Below are positions 4,002 through 31,554 of a stretch of DNA of 64,000 nucleotides, in pieces. Source of the DNA: Candidatus Omnitrophota bacterium. Its GTDB lineage: Bacteria; Omnitrophota; Gorgyraeia; Gygaellales; JAQTUX01. Under the pieces are notes generated by a model that did no database searches, had not been told where the DNA came from, and saw only the letters and a list, made by a program, of their open reading frames with translations. The DNA is taken from positions 1,066,438 to 1,130,437 of the forward strand of contig JAQTUX010000001.1 in NCBI GenBank assembly GCA_028707125.1. The letters are read 5' to 3'. How positions within the stretch are numbered: the stretch's first letter is position 1; every line of letters begins with the position of its first letter. A program made the position numbers and the translations under genes.

Positions 4002-6008
4002 ATGCAGCGAACCCGGACCTCAGAGTTTCTATCTCTGGTTGAGGTAGAAAACTACGAAGATATTTACAGCAAAGACATCCAGGACGGCCTGTATTTCGGC
4101 ATGCCGCTGGAATGCGTCATTGAAACAGAAAAACGCCTTCGCTCCAGTCCCGAACGCTCCATCGCCTATTTTTCAATGGAGTACGGCTTGGGCTCGAGTT
4201 TCTATAACTCATTTAAAACCGCCCGCGGCATACACCCTAATAACAGCAACCAGGAACATGAGGTCTTTTCAAATTTCAGGCTGGCCGACTACTTCTTTAC
4301 CTTCCAGATAGAAAGCATAATGGACCTTCCTCTGTATAGCGGCGGCCTGGGCGTGCTCGCGGGGGATACCCTGAAAACAATGGCGGACTACAAACTCCCC
4401 GTAGTCGCGCTGGGAATGCTCTGGAACACCGGCTACTTCAGGCAGAGATTCTGGTTCAAATACGGACAAATGCCTGAGGCAATACACTGGGACCCTGCTT
4501 CTTATCCCGGGCTCATACCGCTTAAGAACAGGGTGAAGATCAAGCTTAAATCGGAAACCATAGAGTTAAAGCTATGGAAATACTACTGTTACAGCTACAG
4601 ACATGATTATGCCATACCTTTAATACTGTTGGATTCCTGCCTGGAATCAAATACGGAAAAACTCAAATGCCTTACAGACCAGCTCTACAGAAGCGATGAT
4701 GTATGGATTAAAATAATGCAGCGGGTGATCCTGGGCATGGGCGGTGTGGCGGCGTTAGAAGAACTGGGATACAACATTGGCACATACCATATGAATGAAG
4801 GCCATGCCGTATTCGCGTTTTTGGCCAAGGCAAGAGGGCTGGGAGACAAAGACATTGAGGGCCTCAAACAACACTTTGCTTATACCTGCCATACTCCGGT
4901 TGAGGCCGGGCATGACAGATTCTCCACAGGCGACCTCGGCAGGATACTGCCCAAAGAAGATATGGAAATAGCGCAAGAATTCGGCAGGGAGGGCGAAGGC
5001 GCCGTAAACCTGACGTTATTGGCGATGAACGTCTCATCCAGAATAAATGCCGTATCAAAGGCGCATCAGAAAGTAACGCACCTGCAGTTTCCCGCGTACC
5101 GGGATACGATAGGGTTTGTGACAAACGGCGTGCACACGCACACCTGGATATCGGACAGTTTTATGCAGCTATTTGAGGATTTTCGCGATACCTTCGGCGA
5201 CATAAAGGCCAACCCCATGGCTTTAGCCAAGGCAAGCGATCTGAGAAAAGAACCCGGATTCAGGGAGGCGTTATGGCAGGCGCATCAAGTCAATAAATCG
5301 CGGCTCTGCGGGATGCTCTACAAATGGGGCTTGAATAAAGACCTCTTTACCATATGCTGGGCGCGCAGGGTAGCCGCGTATAAAAGGCCGAGCATGATAC
5401 TGCAGGATGTAAACCGCCTGCTTGAGATCGCCGGGAAATACGGCCCGATCCAGATAATCTTTGCCGGTAAAGCGCACCCAATGGACAATATGGGATTTAC
5501 CTATATAAATGAGATGCTGGATAAGGTAGACGGGCTCAACGAAGAATACGACATGCTTAAGATCATAATGCTGGAAAACTACGAGACATTCCTGGCAAAG
5601 ACGCTTACCTCAGGGGTAGACGTATGGCTCAACAACCCTCTCCCGCCGTTTGAGGCATCCGGCACAAGCGGTATGAAAGCGATCTTGAACGGCGTAATAC
5701 AGATGACTACGCTGGACGGCTGGGTAGTAGAAGCGGAAGATAAAGGCATAGGGAAGATCTTCGGCTACAGGAACAAAGAAGGCCATATAGGCGGCGAGCA
5801 TAACCTCCATATGGAAGACGACGCCCGCCAGCTATATAAAGCGCTTGAGGAAACAGTCGCTTTATATTACCGGACTAACGCGCAAGGCAAAGTTGACGCC
5901 TCTTCTCCCTGGATAGACATGATGATAAACTGCATAGCCGCGGGAGCCGATTTCAATACCTACAGGATGCTTGATGAGTATAAAGAGAAAATATGGCAGA
6001 TCAAGTGA
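4002..6008 (+). CDS. glgP: Alpha-glucan (glycogen/maltodextrin) phosphorylase, GT35 family
   Basis: 668 aa with GGLGVLAGD and the PLP-lysine motif EASGTSGMK, the signature of the alpha-glucan phosphorylase family. Confidence 0.8.
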   Translation: MQRTRTSEFLSLVEVENYEDIYSKDIQDGLYFGMPLECVIETEKRLRSSPERSIAYFSMEYGLGSSFYNSFKTARGIHPNNSNQEHEVFSNFRLADYFFTFQIESIMDLPLYSGGLGVLAGDTLKTMADYKLPVVALGMLWNTGYFRQRFWFKYGQMPEAIHWDPASYPGLIPLKNRVKIKLKSETIELKLWKYYCYSYRHDYAIPLILLDSCLESNTEKLKCLTDQLYRSDDVWIKIMQRVILGMGGVAALEELGYNIGTYHMNEGHAVFAFLAKARGLGDKDIEGLKQHFAYTCHTPVEAGHDRFSTGDLGRILPKEDMEIAQEFGREGEGAVNLTLLAMNVSSRINAVSKAHQKVTHLQFPAYRDTIGFVTNGVHTHTWISDSFMQLFEDFRDTFGDIKANPMALAKASDLRKEPGFREALWQAHQVNKSRLCGMLYKWGLNKDLFTICWARRVAAYKRPSMILQDVNRLLEIAGKYGPIQIIFAGKAHPMDNMGFTYINEMLDKVDGLNEEYDMLKIIMLENYETFLAKTLTSGVDVWLNNPLPPFEASGTSGMKAILNGVIQMTTLDGWVVEAEDKGIGKIFGYRNKEGHIGGEHNLHMEDDARQLYKALEETVALYYRTNAQGKVDASSPWIDMMINCIAAGADFNTYRMLDEYKEKIWQIK

Positions 6009-6061
6009 GGACATAAGTTATGGAGCCCCATAACTGGCGTGCTCATTGAAAGGAGGGATGT

Positions 6062-6364
6062 ATGGCGGCAAAAGGAAAGAAGGGGGGATCCAAGATATCC
6101 AAAGACCTGTCCAATCTCTGGAAAGACGTCCGCAGGGAATTCAACGCCTTATCAGGCAAGGCGAACAGATTAATGGCAAGGGGTGAGAAATACCTTAAAC
6201 GCGTGCCTGCCGAAGCCAGGGAAAAGTCGGATGCGCTGGTCATGAGGGCAAAGCGCGAACAACTGTACTATAATTTAGGTAAGGCGGTAGCGAACAGGGA
6301 TACGCGTAAAATAATGCTCCTGCGCAACAAGATATCTACGCTTAGCAGGAAAATCAACGTATAA
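6062..6364 (+). CDS. Hypothetical coiled-coil basic protein
   Basis: 100 aa, RBS AAAGGAGGG, charged helical sequence; no recognisable domain. Confidence 0.35.
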   Translation: MAAKGKKGGSKISKDLSNLWKDVRREFNALSGKANRLMARGEKYLKRVPAEAREKSDALVMRAKREQLYYNLGKAVANRDTRKIMLLRNKISTLSRKINV

Positions 6365-6373
6365 CAGCGCTCT

Positions 6374-6712
6374 ATGCGCCTATATGATAAAGACCTGAGG
6401 GTAGAGTTCTATAAAAGCGGCGGCCCCGGCGGCCAGCATAAGAATAAAAGGCAAACAGCAGTAAGGATAACCCATCTGCCGACCGGGATCTCCGCGGTTG
6501 CCGCGGAAGAACGCTCTCAAGCGCAAAACAGGAATATGGCAATCGCGCGCCTGAGAGGCAAATTAAAGGCGCTGATATCAAAAAGAAAGCCCAGAATACC
6601 CACCAGGACACCGGCTGCCGTAAAACAAAGGGTAAAACAGAGAAAGATCCTGAGGTCTGAAAAGAAAAAATCCAGGGCAAAGGTAGTTATTTCTGGTCCC
6701 TACTCAGAATAA
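6374..6712 (+). CDS. arfB: ArfB-like peptidyl-tRNA hydrolase (stand-alone RF-1 GGQ domain protein)
   Basis: [25 protein letters not shown] is the GGQ catalytic motif of class-I release-factor domains. A basic C-terminal tail follows, as in ArfB/YaeJ. Confidence 0.7.
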
Positions 6713-6754
6713 ATACAGGGTTATTTTGAGTAGGGACTCATAATAAACCACTCG

Positions 6755-6780
6755 TTAAATATAAGTAAGTTTGAGTAAAT
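6755..6780. repeat. Left copy of 26-nt inverted repeat (TTAAATATAAGTAAGTTTGAGTAAAT) flanking the DUF134 gene
   Basis: Its reverse complement matches 7330-7355 at 22/26, including a perfect 15-mer TTAAATATAAGTAAG. Confidence 0.6.
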
Positions 6781-7150
6781 GGACCCGCGCGGAAGGCCTA
6801 AAAAGTATAAAATAGTGCGAAATGACCCCCATATCTGGCGCTTCAGCCCCAGAGGAAAGGCAGGGAGGCCGGAAGAGATCGACCTTAAGATCGAAGAATT
6901 TGAGGCATTCCGGCTGTCTGATAATGACGGCCTTAAACAGGCCCAGGCAGCCGAATTAATGCGCATATCCCAGCAAACCTTCAGCCGGCTTCTTAAGAAG
7001 GCAAGGACAACCCTGGCAGACGCCCTTGTAAACGGCAAGATAATCAAAATACAGGGTGGCTGCTATGTATTAAGTACCCGCCAGAACAATAACCACAACA
7101 ATCACGAGAAGCACGAAGCACCCAGGACCCAAGACAGAATCCCAGAATAA
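6779..7150 (+). CDS. DUF134/UPF0251 family predicted DNA-binding protein (sigma-70 region-4-like HTH)
   Basis: An N-terminal PRGRPKK... motif, then the LSDNDGLKQAQAAELMRISQQTFSRLLKKARTTLADALVNGKIIKIQGG pattern typical of DUF134. Confidence 0.65.
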   Translation: MDPRGRPKKYKIVRNDPHIWRFSPRGKAGRPEEIDLKIEEFEAFRLSDNDGLKQAQAAELMRISQQTFSRLLKKARTTLADALVNGKIIKIQGGCYVLSTRQNNNHNNHEKHEAPRTQDRIPE

Positions 7151-7329
7151 CGCTTACCACGCCGGCTCAAACCTCCGGGAGTCCCTTAGAAACCCCTCAA
7201 TTCAGCATACCCCAACTTCCTATAATATATCTTATGTTAACTTGAGCCAGCAACAAAAACATAATCTAACTAATTGTGCAATAAAGAGTTAGATATAATA
7301 AGTTTTTTCCTGTGGATAACGAATATTTC

Positions 7330-7439
7330 ATTTACTTTGACTTACTTATATTTAACTGGGGATAGATTAACCTGTTCTACTCTAATGGCTTATAAGTAAG
7401 GCGAGGATTTACTTATATTTACGCTGACTTACTTTACCC
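7330..7439. repeat. Right IR copy plus additional direct/inverted copies of the ACTTATATTTA / GACTTAC motif
   Basis: ATTTACTTTGACTTACTTATATTTAA at 7330-7355, TATAAGTAAG at 7391-7400, ATTTACTTATATTTA at 7407-7421, GACTTACTTTACCC at 7426-7439. All lie in a 300-bp AT-rich spacer. Confidence 0.55.
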
Positions 7440-7457
7440 GAAGTTCCTTAGATTTGA

Positions 7458-8303
7458 TTAGGTTGCGGAGAGTTCCCGCAGAAAAATACCGGCCCTTTCG
7501 GAAAACCTGTTTGCGGGATAATTACTGAGTATTTGGCGGTATAACAACCGCGCTTTCTCATTTCTGCCGTAAAGATGGTAATTTCTGGCCTTATAGAGCA
7601 TTCTGGCGGCCGGATCCTTGATCTTTGGCGCTGTCATGCCCAAATAGGCGTCCTGGTACACGACGGCAAACGCCCTGCCGAATATCCGGGCATATTTATT
7701 CGCGATCAAGTCAAAAAGGTGCTTTTCAGAGAGAAAATCATCGGAACGCACCGGCGCGTGCCGGATGGGATAAAGATACGCGGGAGAACCTGTCTCAGCG
7801 GTGATCTCTTCTAATGTAACTGCCTCCCCCCTATCGTTACGGTAAATAAGGTTGTGCAGCGGGTCAACAACCCCCCATTTACCTCTATAATATACTTCGG
7901 CTACTGTGTGGGGTGAGCTTGACACATCATCATTCACCATAAGGAACGCGTAGCGGCCGGATATGCCTTTCGCGGCCAGCAGCTTGCATAAAACCTTTGC
8001 CTGATAATCGCACCACCCCACCCCCTCTACCAGATAGTCAAAGGGCTTCCCCGCGTATGGCCTGCTATCGCTGAAATAATGTCCCAGGCGCGACCTCGTA
8101 TAATCAACGGCGGACTGAATCGTGCCCTCCAATGAAGCTGATGACGGCAGTTCCTTCATTGCTATTACCTGAAATGAAACCTCGTGGTAGGCATGCCTGC
8201 CCAGGGAAGAATTCGCGAACAATAAAGAAATCAGCGGCGACAAGAGTATTACTGACGCCGCCGCTATAAGGAAAATGGTGAAAATTCTCAATAAAACGCG
8301 CAT
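7458..8303 (-). CDS. Transglutaminase-like cysteine protease domain protein, membrane-anchored
   Basis: N-terminal TM helix, GVGWCDYQAKV (Cys core of the transglutaminase-like fold), and a C-terminal TPR-like segment. Confidence 0.55.
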   Translation of the reverse strand: MRVLLRIFTIFLIAAASVILLSPLISLLFANSSLGRHAYHEVSFQVIAMKELPSSASLEGTIQSAVDYTRSRLGHYFSDSRPYAGKPFDYLVEGVGWCDYQAKVLCKLLAAKGISGRYAFLMVNDDVSSSPHTVAEVYYRGKWGVVDPLHNLIYRNDRGEAVTLEEITAETGSPAYLYPIRHAPVRSDDFLSEKHLFDLIANKYARIFGRAFAVVYQDAYLGMTAPKIKDPAARMLYKARNYHLYGRNEKARLLYRQILSNYPANRFSERAGIFLRELSAT

Positions 8304-8305
8304 GC

Positions 8306-10180
8306 CTACTTGACCTGTTTAGTTGAAGCCGACCGTATCAGCCGACAGACCACCGCCTTTTCTTTCTTTCTCAGGCCGGTAAACTCGACGCCTACCATAT
8401 TATTCCTTACCCATGCCACCCTTACGGGCAAATAAAGATATTCCTTTGACCCGGGCGCTTTCAGGCCTATCTTAAGCTGCTTCTTCATTCCAAGATCAAA
8501 AGCGCTTCTGCCGGCCAGGCGCAGCCCGCCTTCGGATATGTCTACCGTGTAAGCCGAGACCCTGTCCTCATAGGGGATGATCTTTATACTGGACCTGTAA
8601 TTAAACCTCTTGAATTTCCTTACCTCAAGGCCCAGGCGCATGCTCATAATGTGTAAACATGAGATCTGCCTGACAGCAGGGCTGTCTGTATCTGAAGGAG
8701 TTGAGATCTGTATGTTTATAAAAAAGTTCTTAAGCCGGTATGACTCTAATAACCGCTTGATCTCCAGATTAAGCAAAGTATGCATGCCGCTTATTTTCGC
8801 CTCGGTCGCCTGGGGCGCTATAATGCTGAATTCAGCTCCGGGGCCTTCGTGGCTGAACACCGGGCATTGCAATTTGCCCAAAACAGCGTCAAGTTTCCGC
8901 GTGAACTCCCGGGAGGGGGCCTTTATCCTTTTCAGGAATTTACCGTAGTTAACTATGGCCAGGTGGATCAGATAAAACTGCTCGTTTTTTTCCAGCAAGC
9001 CGTTTATGTTCTCCCTCATTTGTCCAGGGAGCGGGCTTGCGCTGTAAAACAGCGGTAGCGTAAAATAGAACTTACTGCCTACGCCTAACCGGGATTCTAT
9101 CTCTATTTCTCCCCCGTGCCTCTGCACCAGTTCCTTTACTATATAAAGCCCCAGCCCTACGCCTTTTTTCTCTGAGGCAGGTGTCCGGGATACCTGCACG
9201 AACTTCGCGCACAGCCGGGGTATATCCTGCTCGGCAATGCCTACACCCGTATCCAGCACCCCTACTCTGACCCTTGCCTGCAGCAGTTCCACCTCTACGC
9301 TTACCCTCCCCCCTTCTTCCGTGAACTTTATCGCGTTGTTAATAAGGTTGGATAGGGCCTGGTTGACCCTTTCGGCGTCAATAAACAGGTTTATCTGCCC
9401 GGCAGGGATGTTATAACGCAGGGTTATCTTTTTCTGCCGCGCTAATTTCCGGAAATGCGCCGAACTATCATTGATTATGCCGCATAGATCAGCCAGCGAA
9501 TAATGCAGGGAAAACGCCCCTCTTTCAATCCTGGAGATATCAAGCAGCTCGCTTATGATCTTGTTCAACCGCTCTATATTATTCCTGCCGGTAGTAAGGA
9601 TATCCCTCTGCTTATCGTTGAGTATGCCCCCGACATTATCCAGGATAAGCATTACCGATTCCTTGATGATCGCTAAGGGTGTCCTGAGCTCATGAGAAAC
9701 GGCGGAGACAAATTCCGATTTCATCCTGTTCATTTCCTCTAACGACTCAAGGCGCTTCTCAATCTGTTCCTTCTCTTTCTGCAGGCGTTCCAGGTGGAAA
9801 CGCCGAGTTATATCCCTGGTGATACCCATAAGGCCGATGATATTGCCTTTCTCGTCATGCCTGGGTATCTTGGTGGTGGAGACATAATTGTCAATGCCGT
9901 CAGGCCTCGTTGACCTCTCGATCTTGTCAATGATGGGCTTGCCTGTGCTCATCACATATTCATCGTCCCTGGCCATTATCTCGGCGCGTTCCTTCGGGAA
10001 AAAATCAAAGTCGGTCTTGCCGGCGACTTCATCCGGCTTAAGCCCCAGGCCCTTGGCGTGGGCTTCGTTCACCAGGATAAGCCGCCCCTTTCTGTCTTTA
10101 ATATAGACGACGTCGGGAATATGATTTATAAGTTCCAAAAGGATGCTCTCGTGATACCTGTCGGTTTTCGCCTTCATCAA
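8306..10180 (-). CDS. PAS sensor histidine kinase with C-terminal PilZ domain
   Basis: PAS region, HisKA H-box SHELRTPL, HATPase_c G-boxes (DTGVGI, GVGLGL). At the C-terminus, RFNYR...VDISEGGLRL gives the PilZ RxxxR and DxSxxG motifs. Confidence 0.7.
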   Translation of the reverse strand: MMKAKTDRYHESILLELINHIPDVVYIKDRKGRLILVNEAHAKGLGLKPDEVAGKTDFDFFPKERAEIMARDDEYVMSTGKPIIDKIERSTRPDGIDNYVSTTKIPRHDEKGNIIGLMGITRDITRRFHLERLQKEKEQIEKRLESLEEMNRMKSEFVSAVSHELRTPLAIIKESVMLILDNVGGILNDKQRDILTTGRNNIERLNKIISELLDISRIERGAFSLHYSLADLCGIINDSSAHFRKLARQKKITLRYNIPAGQINLFIDAERVNQALSNLINNAIKFTEEGGRVSVEVELLQARVRVGVLDTGVGIAEQDIPRLCAKFVQVSRTPASEKKGVGLGLYIVKELVQRHGGEIEIESRLGVGSKFYFTLPLFYSASPLPGQMRENINGLLEKNEQFYLIHLAIVNYGKFLKRIKAPSREFTRKLDAVLGKLQCPVFSHEGPGAEFSIIAPQATEAKISGMHTLLNLEIKRLLESYRLKNFFINIQISTPSDTDSPAVRQISCLHIMSMRLGLEVRKFKRFNYRSSIKIIPYEDRVSAYTVDISEGGLRLAGRSAFDLGMKKQLKIGLKAPGSKEYLYLPVRVAWVRNNMVGVEFTGLRKKEKAVVCRLIRSASTKQVK

Positions 10181-20963: not shown

Positions 20964-24020
<3,057 letters not shown>

Positions 24021-24046: not shown

Positions 24047-25864
24047 TTATTTCTTCTTGGCAAAATGTCGCTTTATCTTTCCATCTAGTTCAGCGGTACG
24101 CACGCCCATAGGTATATCTGCTTTATTGGTACCTATATTTTTCCGACAGAACTTTACAAAATCATCAAAAGATTTATCGAAAATCGAATAAAACTCCTTA
24201 TCTTCCTTAAGGGTCTTTAAAATCCGTTCTGATGCTGATATTAACAATGCTCTATCATAATTACCACCGATTATACAATGAAGATAAAAACAACCAATGT
24301 GGAATTTACCATACGACAACAACATATTTTTATACGGATCTACAATGCTTTTATTACGCTGCAGATATCTAATATTTTTATTTAAACGCACATCAATTTC
24401 GACTGGAATACGATAAAGCCTATAATCAACCACGCGTTCTTTCTCGGAAGGAAACACCTCATCATATTTCACTTTAAAAAGTCGCTTAGGATGGCTCTTT
24501 GCTTGAGAAGGCATATCTAAAATATATGATAAATATAGCTGAAATAACTTTTGGATACTCACAACATTTCGTTTACCTTGATTACGATAGAAATTTGTAC
24601 GTCGCTCGTAATAAATACCGAAATCGAGCAAGTATCTTTCTATGTTCTTCTGAATGTCTTCACCAGCCCGCAGAGAAAAAGTTTTAATAGGCGTTTGGGA
24701 ATTGGTGGCCTCCGTTATTTTAAAAATTAAATCTCGGTCCTTTGTGGCGATAATCTTAACAAGCACATGTGCCCCATCTTTTAATAATCTTAGCTGTTTA
24801 GATTCATCCAAATTTTCTCCTCGTTCAGTTCTTTCTCTATTATTTAAAGCAATATATAGAGCATTTGCTGTTTGGCAGCCATTTACAACCTGACAACCAT
24901 ATAATTTCAATCGATTATTTGGCATTTCATCGACATGGCGACAAATAATAGTCATACCATTATTTAAGCCCCAAAAATACTTAGAATCATCCTCGCTCGA
25001 ACATGTATCAATTATCTTAGTATTTAGTTCGTTGCGTTGATAATAATCCCTAATATTAGCTTCAAATAAAGCCCCTTGCCACACTTTAACCAAATTTGCG
25101 ATTTGACTACTCTTTATAATACAAATATATCCTGTTAAACTCCTATTTGCTTCAATTGGAGTGATATATTTTAAATTTGCAACATATTCAACCGATTCAA
25201 TGATCTCATCACCCTTATCTTGTAAATCAACTAATTCTTGTGCGCCTATCAATTTAATATCAACATTGGCATAACCTGCGGTTTTTAAGATTTGTTCTAT
25301 TTCCTGAATATGTGGGGACAATACCGGATCGTCCAGAACAGTATCTTTTACTCCAGAAAAGATAAAATAAACAATGACTTTAACTTGGTCTGGAGAATAA
25401 CGAGTATAAATTTCTTCACGAACAGAAGCGATATCTATGGTACGCTGATAAAGATATGAATTAAGATTGTCTTGTATTTCATTCCGAATAAATGATTTTT
25501 GAATGCCATCCTTCATCTTTAATATAGAATCCAAATCAAGGCCGCTCCGTTTGAATTGAAAAAGATGAAAAATAAATTTTGAATCTTCATTACATTCAGA
25601 AAGATCTTCTATTGAATTAAGTATTCTTCGATTAGCTGTAAGATATAACGCGTCCACCCCATAATCATGCCCTACCTTACGATAAGAACTATCTGTAATA
25701 CCCTCTTCAATCTCTACCAGTTGCAATTCTTTAAAAACTTGCTCTAATGAATATAGCATAAATTCCGAACCACGCTTTACATCATTATCTAAACCATCTG
25801 TAAAATCGCGATAAGAATCCGAAAGTGCGTTTACACGGTTATCGAGCAATGTAAAAATACTCAT
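24047..25864 (-). CDS. AIPR-family abortive-infection protein
   Basis: 605 aa and AT-rich. It has the conserved QVVNGCQT motif and sits between hsdS and hsdR, the canonical context for AIPR. RBS GGAGGGAG. Confidence 0.5.
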
Positions 25865-25890: not shown

Positions 25891-25933
25891 ACCCTTATCT
25901 TTCCTGACATCAGCTTTAGCAAAAGAGAATCGC
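25891..25933 (-). repeat. 43-nt duplicate of hsdS 3' end (remnant encoding ..DSLLLKLMSGKIRV..)
   Basis: 39/43 nt identical to 26934-26976, which is inside the hsdS C-terminus (..DSLLPRLMSGKIRV). This is a direct repeat bracketing ORF 25955-26911. Confidence 0.65.
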
Positions 25934-25954: not shown

Positions 25955-26911
25955 TCACATTGATACCATTTCTCGCTCGAGATCTTCAATTCCCCAAGAG
26001 CCCCACGAATCGGCCTCTTTATTAAATTCATTCCACTCTTTGTCTAAGATCTCAACTCCTTCCGGAGAAACTAATGGTTTATCAATAAATTCAAGATGAT
26101 CATATTGAGGAACTGGCAAAAAACCACCACTTCCTCCGAACAGTATATACACATTAATGAAGTCAACGACTTGACAAATTACTTTATGTGCTTTCCATAG
26201 ATATCCTAGCGTGATTGAAACCTGATCGGCGTTATCATATTTTCTACTTTCCGGGGTAGCCGCGTGAGCTATATTTTTGTCCACATGAGCCTTTATATCA
26301 TCAGTAGCTGATTTAATTTTCTTAATAAGGTAACTAAAAATTTCTTTGCGAATATAATCATTGGGCGTTCGCTGATTCTCTTTAATTCCGGATAAAGCAT
26401 CTATCTGCTCATGCCGCATCCTCAAGAGCTGACTATCTAATTCACGTGGCAAGAAAAAAGCGCCCGAACCACTCCGCAACTTCTCCAACCTATAAGCTGA
26501 CGCACGCTGCTCTACAGCCTCATAATCATACTCCCTGTCTTCAGCTAGAAATAAATATCTTCGGGTCATTAAAGAAGTCTTTGCTCTCATATCGTTTAAT
26601 AATGATACCAAAGAAAATGCCCCCTTCTTCCCAGTAAGTGGATGCGGATCAATTAGGCGTCTGATAGCCAGAAATTGGCTGTCGAAAAAACATTCATCAA
26701 TAAAATAATGCAATGTTCCATTAATTTCTTTATTACCCTGATGATTATCTGGCGCAATTTTTCTAGCACAATTAATCAGTCTAAAAACCGCAGCATTCCA
26801 AATCATCTGATAAACCTGATGAATAATTGAGTTGCGATCGTTTAATGCAAAGCACTCAACCCATAAATCACGTCTTAGTTTAAATTTATTGAATTGCGCA
26901 TCACAAACCAT
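25955..26911 (-). CDS. Hypothetical 318-aa protein embedded in the Type I R-M operon (candidate defense protein with HEPN-like RNxxxH motif)
   Basis: Its start is adjacent to the hsdS stop at 26913, so the two are translationally coupled. AT-rich. Contains RNSIIH and RRLIDPH (Rx4H) motifs and no other recognisable domain. Confidence 0.5.
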   Translation of the reverse strand: MVCDAQFNKFKLRRDLWVECFALNDRNSIIHQVYQMIWNAAVFRLINCARKIAPDNHQGNKEINGTLHYFIDECFFDSQFLAIRRLIDPHPLTGKKGAFSLVSLLNDMRAKTSLMTRRYLFLAEDREYDYEAVEQRASAYRLEKLRSGSGAFFLPRELDSQLLRMRHEQIDALSGIKENQRTPNDYIRKEIFSYLIKKIKSATDDIKAHVDKNIAHAATPESRKYDNADQVSITLGYLWKAHKVICQVVDFINVYILFGGSGGFLPVPQYDHLEFIDKPLVSPEGVEILDKEWNEFNKEADSWGSWGIEDLEREMVSM

Positions 26912-26912
26912 A

Positions 26913-28115
26913 TTAATTCTTAATAGAATCGACCCGTATCTTTCCTGACATCAGCCTTGGCAAAAGGGAATCGCGAACTTCAGTTAACCTGCGATTTTCC
27001 TCTTCATTTTTGCGAATCATTGCTTCAATAGAATTAATAACTATGTCAAACTGTTGCATAATAGCATCGGCTGGAATTACCACGTCGATCTTATGAAATT
27101 CTTTCTTATTTAAGCATCCAAAAACCGTTCCTTCCGAGTTAAACCGGTCCCATAAATCCTTTCTCGTAACAAGAAAATAGAAAAGAAACCCGTTTGAATA
27201 ATTTTTCATTCTTAGAGCCGCAACTCCACGTCCAATTGCGCACTTTCCCAATGTAATATTAAGAGCTCCGACAGGAGCGCGCACACTTATAAGAATGTCT
27301 TTGGCTTCTGCTATTCTTGTTGGAGCGGTACAATAAACCCTTGGCGTAGGGAAGCGAAAGCCAAAATCTCTGTTTCCCTGATAGAAAACCGCACCTTCTC
27401 CAGATTCATTATAAGTTTCACCTGGCGGCGATTGCCCCATGACAATATCGCAAATATCAATCAACTTTCCCTTAAGCCATCCTTGCGGTAAACCATCAAC
27501 AAATTTAGCCTTTTCGTATCCCGGAAACTCGAAATCCACAAACCACCGCTTGAAAATCGCCTGGGCGATGGATCCAAGGGTTTTATTCATCCGGCGGTTA
27601 AGCTCGATTTTTGCGTCAAGGTCGGAGAGGATTTTAGTAATAGCCCTCCGCTCCTCATCATTTTTTACCCATGGGAATTTTATCTTATTTAAGTTTTCTT
27701 GACTCAATTTAGGCTGAACAGCACCAGTAATAAACGCATTAATAGTAGTATTTTTTAATTGGTAATAAAGAAACAAGGTATTGCCATAGGAATCGCTTTG
27801 CAGAACATGAGCATGATTACTCACCCAAAACTTCCCGCGTGGCAATTGAAGCATTGGCTTAAAACCGTCGCAGGTAACTGTTCCGTCTTCGGCAATAAGA
27901 AGATAATCTCCATCGTATTTATAGTCATTAACATAATCTATTATTCCAGCAGCACCATAATAAGGATACTGCCCCTTACTTTTTGACCTTTCAGCAGAGC
28001 TTAATGGTTTTCTTTTATTGTCAAAATTAGAAGCGACATCAGGGATTGTAACCATTTCCCAATCTTCAGGAATCATCCCGATTTCAGTCTCTTTGAGTTT
28101 TGTTTTTTGTTTCAT
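26913..28115 (-). CDS. hsdS: Type I restriction-modification specificity subunit
   Basis: 400 aa with two TRD halves, a central conserved helix (ITKILSDLDAKIELNRRMNKTL) and a C-terminal conserved helix (LTEVRDSLLPRLMSGKIRV). Confidence 0.8.
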   Translation of the reverse strand: MKQKTKLKETEIGMIPEDWEMVTIPDVASNFDNKRKPLSSAERSKSKGQYPYYGAAGIIDYVNDYKYDGDYLLIAEDGTVTCDGFKPMLQLPRGKFWVSNHAHVLQSDSYGNTLFLYYQLKNTTINAFITGAVQPKLSQENLNKIKFPWVKNDEERRAITKILSDLDAKIELNRRMNKTLGSIAQAIFKRWFVDFEFPGYEKAKFVDGLPQGWLKGKLIDICDIVMGQSPPGETYNESGEGAVFYQGNRDFGFRFPTPRVYCTAPTRIAEAKDILISVRAPVGALNITLGKCAIGRGVAALRMKNYSNGFLFYFLVTRKDLWDRFNSEGTVFGCLNKKEFHKIDVVIPADAIMQQFDIVINSIEAMIRKNEEENRRLTEVRDSLLPRLMSGKIRVDSIKN

Positions 28116-28657
28116 CTGTTATTTTCTAAAAATATGTCCATTAGTTCTTTTAAGGTTTTATATCCATACTCCACAGCAAACCGATCCCTTTCACGCTCTG
28201 GGTCTTTTGTACCGTGAAATAAATTATTTCTGATACTGCACCAAAATTCAACCATGTTCCCCCAATCACTGAGCGAATGAATAACCCCCTTTATTTCTTG
28301 TCGCTCTTCCGGAGACATCTCATCAAGGTTATTTTTTGAGCAATTCCACCACTTTATTTCTTCTACAGAATTGAGGTCCCGAGAAGCATTGCCGAGCCTC
28401 AGTTTATCTAGTTCTTGCTTAATATGCTCCCAATCCTTTCTCAGAAACTTTCTTGATTTTATGCGTTCTAAATATTTCTTTCTTATATCTTTAGCTTGCT
28501 TAAGCTTTTGAATAGCTTGCCTGTCTGAATCATTGCTTAAATATTTTTGAGTCTTCAAATATGCAATAAATGCTAGATATTCAAATACAAATTTAGAAAA
28601 ATAGTCTTCTTCACTTGCTTTCGCATGCCAATTCTTTATTAATTGCTCATAGCTCAT
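28112..28657 (-). CDS. HEPN-like protein inserted between hsdM and hsdS
   Basis: 181 aa with the C-terminal motif [12 protein letters not shown] (Rx4H with RN..H). Its start overlaps the hsdM stop and its stop overlaps the hsdS start. Confidence 0.4.
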
Positions 28658-30230
28658 ATCCCAAACCTTCCAAGTTTTTCTTTATTTCTTGCTCAAGCTC
28701 TTTTGATTTCTTGAATTGAAAATAAAGCTCAGATGTAAGCCTTTGCATTTTCTTTTCAAAAAGCTCATCATCCTCTTCAACCTCTTCGGTTCCGACATAT
28801 CTGCCCGGAGTCAAAATATGCCCGTGTTTCTGTATCTCATCGAGCTTAACTGCCTTGCAGAATCCTCTAACATCTTTATATTTCCCGCCTTCGCCTCTCC
28901 AAGCGTGATAGGTTAAGGCAATCTTTTTTATTTCCTCATCGGTTAATTCACGATGGCGCCTGTCAATCATCGCCCCCATATTCCTGGCATCAATAAAGAG
29001 AATTTCTCCGCGCCTGTCTCTAAACTTATGGTTCTTCTTATCGCGGGAGACAAACCAGAGGCATACGGGAATCATGGTGTTATAAAAAAGCTGCGAAGGT
29101 AACGATATCATGCAGTCCACAAGGTTTGCCTCTATGATATTCTTTCGGATTTCGCCTTCACCAGAGGTATTAGAAGACATAGAGCCATTGGCTAAAACAA
29201 ACCCTGCTGTGCCGCTTGGAGAAAGATGATGAATGAAATGCTGCACCCAGGCAAAGTTGGCATTCCCTGCAGGAGGCACTCCATATTTCCAGCGCGCATC
29301 TTCTCGCAGAAGCTCGCCTTTCCAATCGCTGTCATTGAAAGGCGGATTGGCGATAACAAAGTCGGCCTTCAGGTCCTTGTGGGCGTCATTCAAAAAGCTG
29401 CCTTCATTATTCCAGGTAATATGCGCATCTATGCCGCGGATGGCAAGGTTCATCTTACATAGACGCCAGGTTGTCTGGTTGGATTCCTGTCCGTAGACCG
29501 CGATATCTCCGATGCGTCCGCCGTGCGCCTGCACAAACTTCTCGCTCTGAACAAACATACCGCCTGAGCCGCAGCAGGGATCAAATACCCTGCCTTTATA
29601 CGGCTCGAGCATTTCAACCAACAGCTTAACAATGCAGCGCGCAGTATAAAATTGGCCGCCCTTCTTACCTTCGGCATCGGCAAATTGGCCGAGAAAATAC
29701 TCATATACACGGCCTAAAATGTCCTTACTGCGGCCCTCTTTATCGCCAAGCACTATGGTCCCTATCAAATCAATTAGTTCGCCAAGGCGCTGCTTATCAA
29801 GGGATGACCGGGCATAATTCTTAGGAAGCACTCCTCTAAGAGAAGAATTCCCTTTCTCAACCGCATCCATAGCATCATCAATAATCTTGCCTATGGTTGG
29901 CTGTTTGGCATTCTTCTGCAGATAATCCCAGCGCGCCTTTTTAGGAACATAAAAGACATTCTCGGCCCTGTATTCATCGGGATCATTCAATGTTTCATAC
30001 CGCGCCTGCGGCTCGGCAAGATAATATTCGCCCTTACTATCAGACAGTTCTTTCTCTAAATCATTGTAATGTTCCTCAAAGGCATCAGAGATGTATTTCA
30101 AGAAAATAAGCCCCAGGACAACATGCTTATACTCGGCAGCGTCCATATTATTACGGAGCTTATCCGCGGCCTGCCACAGCTTTGCCTCAAAGCCAAGATT
30201 GGCTCCGTTGTCTTTCTTCTTTTTAACCAT
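28647..30230 (-). CDS. hsdM: Type I restriction-modification N6-adenine DNA methyltransferase subunit
   Basis: HsdM N-terminal domain, then motif I (DPCCGSGGM) and motif IV (VIANPPFN). Confidence 0.9.
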
Positions 30231-30369: not shown

Positions 30370-31554
30370 TTATTTTCTTATGAGGGGGAGCATCCTGTAA
30401 ACATTGGCTTTCCTGTCGGAATAATCAGGGGGTGTTGGCTTGTCTCTGGTGATTTCAATGAGCCCGTTTGACTCTAATTCCAAGAGACCTAATGAGATAG
30501 TCGTATCGCTTATGCCGTAGAGCTTGGACATATCTTCCTGGCTGCGGAACCAGAAAGGGTATTTTGTAGAGCGGGATGCTTCATACAGGCAAACAAGATA
30601 CATATACTTTGCCCGCATAGAGAGTTTGTCGGAGTATCCCTGATGCCAATATTCAAAGGGAATTGTTATTGGGGCGGAGAGCGCGGCGGTATCGGACTTT
30701 AGTGTGACTTTGCCTTTCCTGTAGTCTATAAGGCCGCAGCGCCTGAGGCGTTTCAGTAAACGGTGCACCCTCTCATAGAAGTAGTGGTGTTCATTGCGAT
30801 AGGTGCCCGGTTTCTTTGGAGCTTGGTATTTCATATCTTTGGCTATAGAGTCGTAATCAAGGTCAAAGGATGACTGGTCTCTCTCTTGCCGGAGTTTATG
30901 TAACAGTAGATAAATGTCAAATTGTCTGTCTGCCTGGGCTTTAATGAGACGGCGGCCTAACTTAGGGGAAAGAAGAAAACTGCTTGAAACAGCTACGCCT
31001 TCTGCGGAAGGCAGGAATAGATCTTTATCCTGAAGAGGGATATCGTTAATCTGCTCCTTCAAGGCAATGGCGTCTTCGGGAGAGTCCTTAAAATAGGTGG
31101 CCTCATAGTTATCTTCAATGGCCGCCTTTGACCAGTTGGCGCTGCCTACGAATACATATCTGTCATCAATAACGGCTGCCTTTGTATGCAAAAGATGCTC
31201 AGGCGTATCAAAGTATACGGCTATGTTGTTTTCCTTTAGCTTTTCATAGGCAAGGCGGTTCTCCTTTAGCTTTGAGTCCTCCAAGATGACCTTTATCGCT
31301 ACTTTACGCTGTTTCGCGGCTATGAGATCATTAAGCAGCTCGTTAACCGGGTTGGCCTGGTCATCAGGGCCTATTATGATAAAGTAGATCGCTATGGTAA
31401 TTGAGGTCTTGGACTCGGATAGGTATTTATGCAGGTATTGGTGGTAGGAGCTGCCGAAAAGGATTTCCGCAGAGCTGATCTGGCCGCAAAATACAAAATA
31501 AGCCAATGCAGCCAGAGATATATAGTTGACTCTTAGCTTATTTATGTTTCTCAC
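30370..31554 (-). CDS. Phospholipase-D-family (Nuc-like) nuclease with signal peptide and C-terminal winged-helix domain
   Basis: The N-terminus has a signal peptide. The HKD motif is HTKAAVIDDRYVFVGSANWS. The C-terminal ~200 aa end in a wHTH-like segment MSKLYGISDTTISLGLLELESNGLIEI. Confidence 0.6.
   Translation of the reverse strand: MRNINKLRVNYISLAALAYFVFCGQISSAEILFGSSYHQYLHKYLSESKTSITIAIYFIIIGPDDQANPVNELLNDLIAAKQRKVAIKVILEDSKLKENRLAYEKLKENNIAVYFDTPEHLLHTKAAVIDDRYVFVGSANWSKAAIEDNYEATYFKDSPEDAIALKEQINDIPLQDKDLFLPSAEGVAVSSSFLLSPKLGRRLIKAQADRQFDIYLLLHKLRQERDQSSFDLDYDSIAKDMKYQAPKKPGTYRNEHHYFYERVHRLLKRLRRCGLIDYRKGKVTLKSDTAALSAPITIPFEYWHQGYSDKLSMRAKYMYLVCLYEASRSTKYPFWFRSQEDMSKLYGISDTTISLGLLELESNGLIEITRDKPTPPDYSDRKANVYRMLPLIRK

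Follow-up and report, generated by a model that had tools for sequence, protein, structure and literature searches.

In the 64,000-nucleotide stretch of Candidatus Omnitrophota DNA analyzed here (contig JAQTUX010000001.1; the window), a Type I restriction-modification (R-M) operon lies on the minus strand and reads hsdM, a 181-amino-acid (aa) open reading frame (ORF), hsdS, a gene for a 318-aa protein, a gene for an AIPR protein, and hsdR (Table 1). The 318-aa gene, hereafter the target, had earlier been singled out from the letters of the sequence as an unassignable, candidate novel anti-phage effector with two HEPN-style motifs. We find that the target is certainly a genuine gene and that, by profile match and alignment, its product is a divergent member of the HEPN_AbiU2 family, belonging to a Val-type branch that is devoid of the motif Arg. 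The motif of the family sits at an invariant His, His216, and relatives of the gene recur as passengers of Type I operons, where they usually stand right before hsdR.

Table 1. Features of the operon and of the target gene, in window coordinates
Feature	Coordinates	Strand	Description
hsdM, methyltransferase subunit, first gene of the operon	28647..30230	-	Pfam HsdM_N, N6_Mtase
181-aa passenger ORF, between hsdM and hsdS	28112..28657	-	from the ORF listing; RNNLFHG motif
hsdS, specificity subunit	26913..28115	-	Pfam Methylase_S, E 6.8e-34
True 3' end of hsdS, repeat copy A	26932..26974	-	43-nucleotide direct repeat; encodes ..DSLLPRLMSGKIRV..
Target (AbiU2-like gene)	25955..26911	-	318-aa ATG-to-stop ORF; divergent HEPN_AbiU2-family protein
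First motif of the original prediction, RNSIIH, residues 26-31	26819..26836	-	not a conserved R..H
Second motif of the original prediction, RRLIDPH, residues 84-90	26642..26662	-	not an Rx4-6H motif
Signature block V210-D-K-N-I-A-H216-A-A-T-P-E-S-R223	26243..26284	-	position of the HEPN motif in the family, with Val for the canonical Arg
Fossil 3' end of hsdS, second repeat copy	25891..25933	-	outside ORFs, between target stop and AIPR start; 91% identical to copy A
AIPR / AbiU1-type protein gene	24047..25864	-	Pfam AIPR, E 6.6e-36; PADLOC AbiU, E 3e-87
hsdR, restriction subunit	20964..24020	-	Pfam HSDR_N, SWI2_SNF2, T1RH-like_C

The Target Gene in Its Operon

A single base separates the stop codon of hsdS (TAA, 26913-26915) from the start codon of the target (ATG, 26909-26911), and the two genes would be translationally coupled. 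No terminator-like sites were seen on the minus strand from hsdS to hsdR, the promoter and terminator scan being overall at chance level, and the target is apparently co-transcribed with the Type I operon. At 0.383, its GC content (the fraction of guanine plus cytosine) is below that of the window (0.473) and of hsdM and hsdR (0.46-0.47); other genes of the operon are similarly poor in GC, namely hsdS (39.8%), the 181-aa ORF (34.8%), and the AIPR gene (33.6%). In these respects, the original prediction was accurate: it had placed a 318-aa ORF at exactly these positions, giving no strand, and had described it as AT-rich, with a start abutting the hsdS stop, and as lying between hsdS and an AIPR gene, identities that Pfam (Methylase_S, AIPR) and PADLOC (AbiU) uphold. 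In a database comparison, the protein proved identical to the hypothetical protein PHR44_05490 of a Candidatus Omnitrophica metagenome-assembled genome at NCBI.

Family Membership

The Pfam profile HEPN_AbiU2 (PF18734) matches the target with 35.4 bits (E 9.5e-9), over residues 71-254 of the protein and positions 45-170 of the 193 in the profile. Since this is above the curated gathering score of 26.8, we consider the target HEPN-related; it does contain a recognizable domain, which the original prediction had denied. The same tag had been precomputed on the identical protein in a public collection, and among 15 diverse relatives, eight match PF18734 (E<=0.01) and none matches another family. 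The target had no match in PADLOC, NCBIfam, or PHROGs, a profile search for named relatives returned "hypothetical protein" entries only, and a tblastn search of plasmids with the target and the AIPR protein found no Lactococcus AbiU2.

The family is large. Beyond 77 close homologues of the target, down to 29% identity, an exhaustive profile search reached 1,566 clusters with E<=1e-3, or 706 when the limit is set to E<=1e-30, clusters being counted at 50% identity. The AlphaFold2 model of the target, built from a 38-sequence alignment, is all-helical, with a mean predicted local distance difference test score (pLDDT) of 87.5 and a predicted template-modeling score of 0.87. The numbers of homologues and clusters, together with the pLDDT of the model, are the reason for regarding the gene as real.

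AbiU2 was defined in 2013 by Anantharaman et al., who recognized HEPN domains in six Abi families of lactococci, AbiU2 among them, and whose Table 1 names "R-M operons" among its contexts (PMC3710099). The target can thus be called neither unassignable nor novel: the occurrence of the family in Type I operons was already described, and the find, while real, is fairly ordinary.

The Conserved Motif and the Missing Arg

Conservation was counted in an alignment of 252 family members. His216 and R117 are invariant (252/252), and they are accompanied by D171 (249), D185 (247), R223 (246), R181 (244), H167 (237), and K212 (225). Around His216, the family shares the block [V/A/R]210-[N/D/H]-K-x-[I/V/L]-A-H216-[A/S]-A-[T/D/S]-x-x-S-R223, the first position of which is Val in 157 sequences, Ala in 33, Arg in 32, and Thr in 11. 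The canonical form R-N/H-K-x-I-A-H is found only in a distant branch, comprising the 32 sequences with Arg and including a gene on a Sphingomonas plasmid, with the consensus L-R-N-K-x-I-A-H; position 210 is therefore the equivalent of the motif Arg. These distant, Arg-containing relatives also match PF18734, and their match is centered on the same His216 block. As the alignment reads, the motif Arg was lost from the clade of the target and from about 80% of the family members sampled, which have Val, Ala, or Thr instead but retain the His, the Lys, and the polar residue.

The placement of the block agrees with what is known of HEPN domains. In the model, it occupies the C-terminal end of helix 189-213 and the beginning of the next loop, ahead of helix 235-257, so that H216 comes just after the first of these helices, and the Rx4-6H motif of HEPN proteins is likewise located at the end of a helix or the start of the loop that follows; the residue after the motif Arg is typically N, D, or H (PMC3710099).

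The motifs proposed originally fare differently. Both strings are present, RNSIIHQ at residues 26-32 and RRLIDPH at residues 84-90, but neither His is conserved: position 31 is mostly N in the relatives, also Q, R, or S, and rarely H (with R at position 26 in 97/252), and H90 falls in a gap-rich, variable loop, next to the well-conserved R84 (220/252) and R85 (234/252). The target contains four R-x(4-6)-H pairs, against a mean of 1.8 in shuffled sequences (P=0.10), and their number is thus at chance level; the real motif is the His216 block. The residues of interest become H216, K212, R117, and R223, in place of the R and H residues named before.

Genomic Contexts of Relatives

We surveyed 33 loci from species-representative genomes, about 10 metagenomic contexts, and 3 plasmids; individual loci are cited by number. 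Besides the window, at least seven loci have a homologue of the target within a Type I operon. The operons of four loci (L037, L038, L041, and L004) are orthologous to that of the window, their hsdM and hsdR matching with 980-1,870 bits, and in all four, the homologue is the last passenger, directly before hsdR. The remaining genes vary: L037 reads hsdM, a 126-aa ORF, hsdS, target homologue, hsdR; L038 has hsdS, a 566-aa ORF, target homologue, hsdR; L041 has hsdS, ORFs of 209 and 312 aa, target homologue, hsdR; and in L004, further genes, including DUF2326/ABC-3C and DUF6119, stand between hsdS and the homologue, which again precedes hsdR. In L038 and L041, the stop codon of the homologue overlaps the start of hsdR by 4 nucleotides (nt). 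More distant examples are L017, with the order hsdM, target homologue, hsdS, hsdR and an adjoining AbiEii gene; L014, where SIR2 and HerA-like genes share the Type I operon; and L007. The flanks of several of these operons contain GmrSD, PD-(D/E)XK, DarT-Macro, and Fic genes and serine recombinases. The idea of a HEPN-related, defense-type passenger of Type I operons is borne out by these co-occurrences (SIR2/HerA, AbiEii, ABC-3C, GmrSD, and DarT among the neighbors) and by the PF18734 match, and homologues do recur in defense contexts, although one subclade is stably housed in the housekeeping gatCAB operon.

Immediately upstream of hsdM, a serine recombinase gene is paired with a DUF2924 gene in L037 (1-816) and L038 (252-2320), and no such pair lies beside the hsdM of the window. 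The recombinase pairs of L037 and L038 suggest an integrative element as the carrier of the entire Type I island. A further difference concerns HsdR itself, which has 1,018 aa in the window and about 1,184-1,199 aa in the orthologues of L037, L038, L041, and L004; a weak Peptidase_S24 match was found in the HsdR of L037, L038, and L041, and the protein of the window seems to be without the extension of its relatives.

Homologues also occur alone, some of them beside an integrase or within a mobile element, and on plasmids too. The genes upstream of the distant homologues on plasmids differ: a 382-aa AAA-like ATPase in L001 (Pseudomonas aeruginosa pPALO532, 5213-7312) and a DUF2971 protein in L002 (pSTY, 6994-8867). 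The target family may thus pair with different partners in different lineages. An Omnitrophica homologue, P0028 (520 aa; L044, 8001-9563), is fused to an N-terminal BSP domain (basic secretory protein, PF04450); a tyrosine integrase gene and a MauJ-like gene are found nearby.

Fossil Gene Ends at the Junctions

The last part of hsdS is present twice in the window: the copy outside the ORFs, between target and AIPR, reads CDSLLLKLMSGKIRV where the true C-terminus of HsdS has RDSLLPRLMSGKIRV. As this fossil hsdS 3' end stands between the two genes, they are to be seen as separately acquired cassettes. Comparable remnants are found in two of the related operons. In L004, two 90-nt units (6147-6236 and 7868-7957) precede the DUF6119 gene and the AbiU2-like gene, and each joins ~17 codons from the start of hsdR to the final ~15 codons of hsdS, with the same breakpoint twice. 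In L007, the 3' ends of hsdM and hsdS are each repeated before the next gene (4960-5050/5901-5991 and 7165-7202/7930-7967). No junction fossils were seen in L037, L038, L041, L014, and L017.

The simplest reading is that the passengers each once stood alone between an hsdS and an hsdR and that recombination between Type I operons strung them together; to judge from the structure of the remnants, the units stacked in this manner would be cassettes made up of an hsdS 3' end, a gene, and an hsdR 5' end. We also considered the 43-nt repeat as the mark of a simple insertion of the target only and rejected this explanation, as L004 shows the repeats to be junction fossils placed before each passenger. 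Since a fossil precedes every passenger, the repeats do not tell in which order the passengers were acquired.

Other Genes of the Island

The 181-aa ORF overlaps both hsdM and hsdS, and its RNNLFHG motif is HEPN-like, with N after the R. A homologue with 64% identity occupies the same slot in L004 and keeps the RNNLFHG. The ORF has no match in Pfam, PADLOC, or NCBIfam and only a weak, ParB-like one in PHROG (E 0.0022); a single-sequence AlphaFold2 model was unusable (pLDDT 48.8). Judging from the motif, it is possibly a further HEPN-like gene.

Directly upstream of hsdM lies a gene (30370-31554, minus strand) whose 394-aa product begins with a PLD-like nuclease domain (PLDc_2) and has a helix-turn-helix domain in its C-terminal part; it may be another gene of the defense island. 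Beyond it, the flank looks like housekeeping sequence, with an AAA_22 ATPase beside a T2SSB-domain gene, and a DHQ synthase.

Discussion

We think it probable, although with considerable reserve, that the target is an AbiU2-type HEPN effector: latent, triggered by infection, RNA damaging, and abortive in its outcome. Members of its family are predicted metal-independent endoribonucleases of abortive-infection systems. In the mechanism that we infer, with its ribonuclease (RNase) activity, its trigger, and its abortive outcome, the protein would be expressed with the restriction genes as a second-line effector and would stay latent in uninfected cells until activated during phage infection. The trigger could possibly be the disabling of the restriction complex, by analogy with PrrC in the EcoprrI locus, and the activated protein, using the invariant His216 site, would damage RNA, stop translation, and abort the infection. 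The model case of an RNase guard within a Type I locus is PrrC (PMC3710099, PMC12707154), and genes embedded in Type I operons are frequently defense genes (10.1101/2024.01.29.577857, PMC11411939). Moreover, an integron cassette encoding a solo HEPN protein with the AbiU2 domain has been reported to give resistance to T4 and T7 (2026 preprint, 10.64898/2026.03.17.712381).

Several observations weigh against this reading, the chief doubt being the missing Arg. The Arg of Rx4-6H is listed as conserved for AbiU2 (Table 1 of PMC3710099) and is required in PrrC and in the KEN domain (PMC3710099), but it is a Val in the target and absent from about 80% of the sampled family. The second concerns the fold. 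A Foldseek search with the target model turned up no structure in PDB or BFVD, HEPN or otherwise, at E<0.5; sequence and profile searches of the PDB sequences returned nothing meaningful, and no family member appears to have a solved structure. Because Foldseek gave no similar structure, the assignment to a putative HEPN fold rests on a single profile match of moderate score, complemented by the topological position of the motif. Third, AbiU2 of Lactococcus lactis was non-toxic when over-expressed in Escherichia coli (PMC3985639). Finally, some of the solitary homologues lie between housekeeping genes (mutS, ileS, serS, or a gene for an EF-G-family GTPase), and in one subclade, found in six Planctomycetota-type genomes (L018, L022, L023, L024, L025, and L027, around position 8000 in each), the order is gatC, gatA, a 126-aa PD-(D/E)XK_3 gene, the AbiU2-like gene, and gatB. 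Within this subclade, the homologues share 65-78% identity, against 69-82% for GatA and GatB; this divergence in step with the two proteins indicates that they have been retained vertically for a long time. The stable residence of a HEPN-like gene in a tRNA-amidotransferase operon is odd for a defense gene.

Some HEPN families keep the His and obtain a basic residue from elsewhere (PMC3710099), and an invariant R117 and a nearly invariant R223 would fit this precedent. Catalysis, if any, would need another invariant basic residue, with R117, R223, and K212 as the candidates.

The strongest competitor, which we regard as unlikely but by no means far-fetched, is a catalytically dead HEPN-like protein that would serve as an RNA- or nucleotide-binding sensor, an adaptor, or a regulator of its partners, these being HsdR in most relatives and perhaps AIPR in the window. 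The Val at position 210, set against the R-N-K-x-I-A-H of the distant branch, agrees well with such a role, and HEPN domains without the motif are probably non-catalytic RNA binders (PMC3710099). The non-toxicity of the lactococcal protein and the tight coupling of the gene to hsdR in relatives point the same way. A modulating role would fit as well: AbiU1 alone reportedly gives resistance, and AbiU2 may down-modulate it. On the other hand, a His found in all 252 sequences, in the company of the polar residue, the Lys, R117, and R223, resembles a preserved active site more than a decayed one, and the families that draw their basic residue from elsewhere show that a His without its Arg has parallels.

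A bolder proposal, which we consider rather doubtful, is that the Val-type clade is a rewired HEPN enzyme completed by R117 or R223, acting with HsdR as its partner as a guardian of Type I restriction, and that cassettes are shuffled by way of the fossil hsdS and hsdR ends, building arrays of embedded defense genes. If this is true, the fossils in the window, in L004, and in L007 are the footprints of a recombination-based shuffling of cassettes.

It is improbable, in our view, that the target (as AbiU2) and the AIPR protein (as AbiU1) act together as a two-gene AbiU system for which the Type I operon is a landing site only. The idea has an obvious appeal: the window reproduces the domain pair of L. 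lactis AbiU, which consists of abiU1 and abiU2 (PMC3985639), the two genes are neighbors on the minus strand only 90 nt apart, and PADLOC AbiU and Pfam HEPN_AbiU2 recognize one each. The AIPR protein also matches the PHROG "Abi alpha-like abortive infection mechanism" (E 1.5e-55). A functional pairing with AIPR, however, is not conserved in any relative examined. The target family has no AIPR neighbor in the 33 genomic loci or the about 10 metagenomic contexts; conversely, no AbiU2-like neighbor was found in the AIPR contexts examined, including those of the closest homologues (80% and 47% identity). The closer of these lies downstream of another Type I hsdR, beside Fic and RhuM genes, and more distant AIPR genes, including plasmid-borne ones, stand alone; a scan of metagenomes with the AIPR protein found nothing. 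In addition, the fossil hsdS end separates the two genes, and in PADLOC, the definition of AbiU comprises nothing but the AIPR gene. AIPR is most simply read as a second passenger, acquired independently of the target, and their adjacency as secondary.

Very improbable, too, is a role outside defense, by which the target would be a housekeeping or selfish protein related to RNA or translation and hitch-hiking in variable regions, Type I operons among them. The residence in gatCAB with its co-divergence and the homologues beside mutS, ileS, serS, and the GTPase gene are what one would expect of such a protein, but repeated and independent embedding in Type I operons, overlapping stop and start codons, and known defense genes as co-passengers are not. 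Occurrence on plasmids and on islands linked to integrases or recombinases, the GC content of the target, low relative to the core genes, and the protection reported for the AbiU2-domain cassette against T4 and T7 also argue against it. The notion of an unclassifiable new effector with its active site at RNSIIH and/or RRLIDPH is hardly credible. Both strings exist, and one of them contains the strongly conserved R84 and R85, but the protein has its match among the curated families of Pfam, neither H31 nor H90 is conserved, and the R-x(4-6)-H pairs are as frequent as chance allows.

Overall, the analysis turns a former mystery effector into an identifiable AbiU2-family HEPN gene, and it does so for a family of at least 1,566 clusters at 50% identity that is almost wholly annotated as "hypothetical." As most of its members are without the Arg considered essential for HEPN catalysis, any cutting of RNA by them would bear on HEPN active sites in general. 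The junction fossils, in turn, give a concrete picture of how accessory defense genes are stacked inside Type I operons.

Comparison with Known Systems

Among known systems, AbiU as defined by PADLOC and DefenseFinder consists of a single AIPR/AbiU1 gene; the gene matched in the window is the neighbor of the target (24047-25864), and the target itself falls outside that definition. The HEPN-MNT (type VII) toxin-antitoxin systems differ in their partner: the neighbors of the target are hsdS and AIPR and not an MNT gene, and no MNT gene was found in the related contexts.

The closest likeness is to HEPN_AbiU2 (PF18734), with which the target shares a profile score above the cut-off, an all-helical structure, the [NDH]-K-x-x-A-H at the end of a long helix, and an occurrence in R-M operons. 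Its clade departs from this family in having Val, Ala, or Thr in place of the motif Arg and in that the conserved unit is the whole protein of ~318 aa, extending beyond the 193-position Pfam domain; the target is also without a Sel1-repeat partner. The likeness to AbiU2 of L. lactis, the founding member, was established through the Pfam profile.

The position of the target recalls TgvAB of Vibrio cholerae VPI-2 (PMC11411939) and the "guilt-by-embedding" genes (Payne et al. 2024), which are likewise accessory defense genes inserted between core hsd genes; the protein families described there differ from that of the target, and the passages found by keyword in these papers contain no mention of fossil hsdS 3' ends at the junctions, as in the window, or of hsdR 5' ends, as in L004.

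A further parallel is PrrC of the EcoprrI Type Ic locus. The target has neither the N-terminal ABC-ATPase domain of PrrC nor its canonical Rx4-6H, no ATPase family being found in it by Pfam, NCBIfam, or PADLOC; no sequence relationship connects the two beyond the superfamily. What they share is the arrangement, a HEPN-type gene placed between hsdS and hsdR (in 7 related loci, too, the gene is embedded in a Type I operon), and, if our proposal is right, they would also share the function of a latent RNase that backs up restriction.

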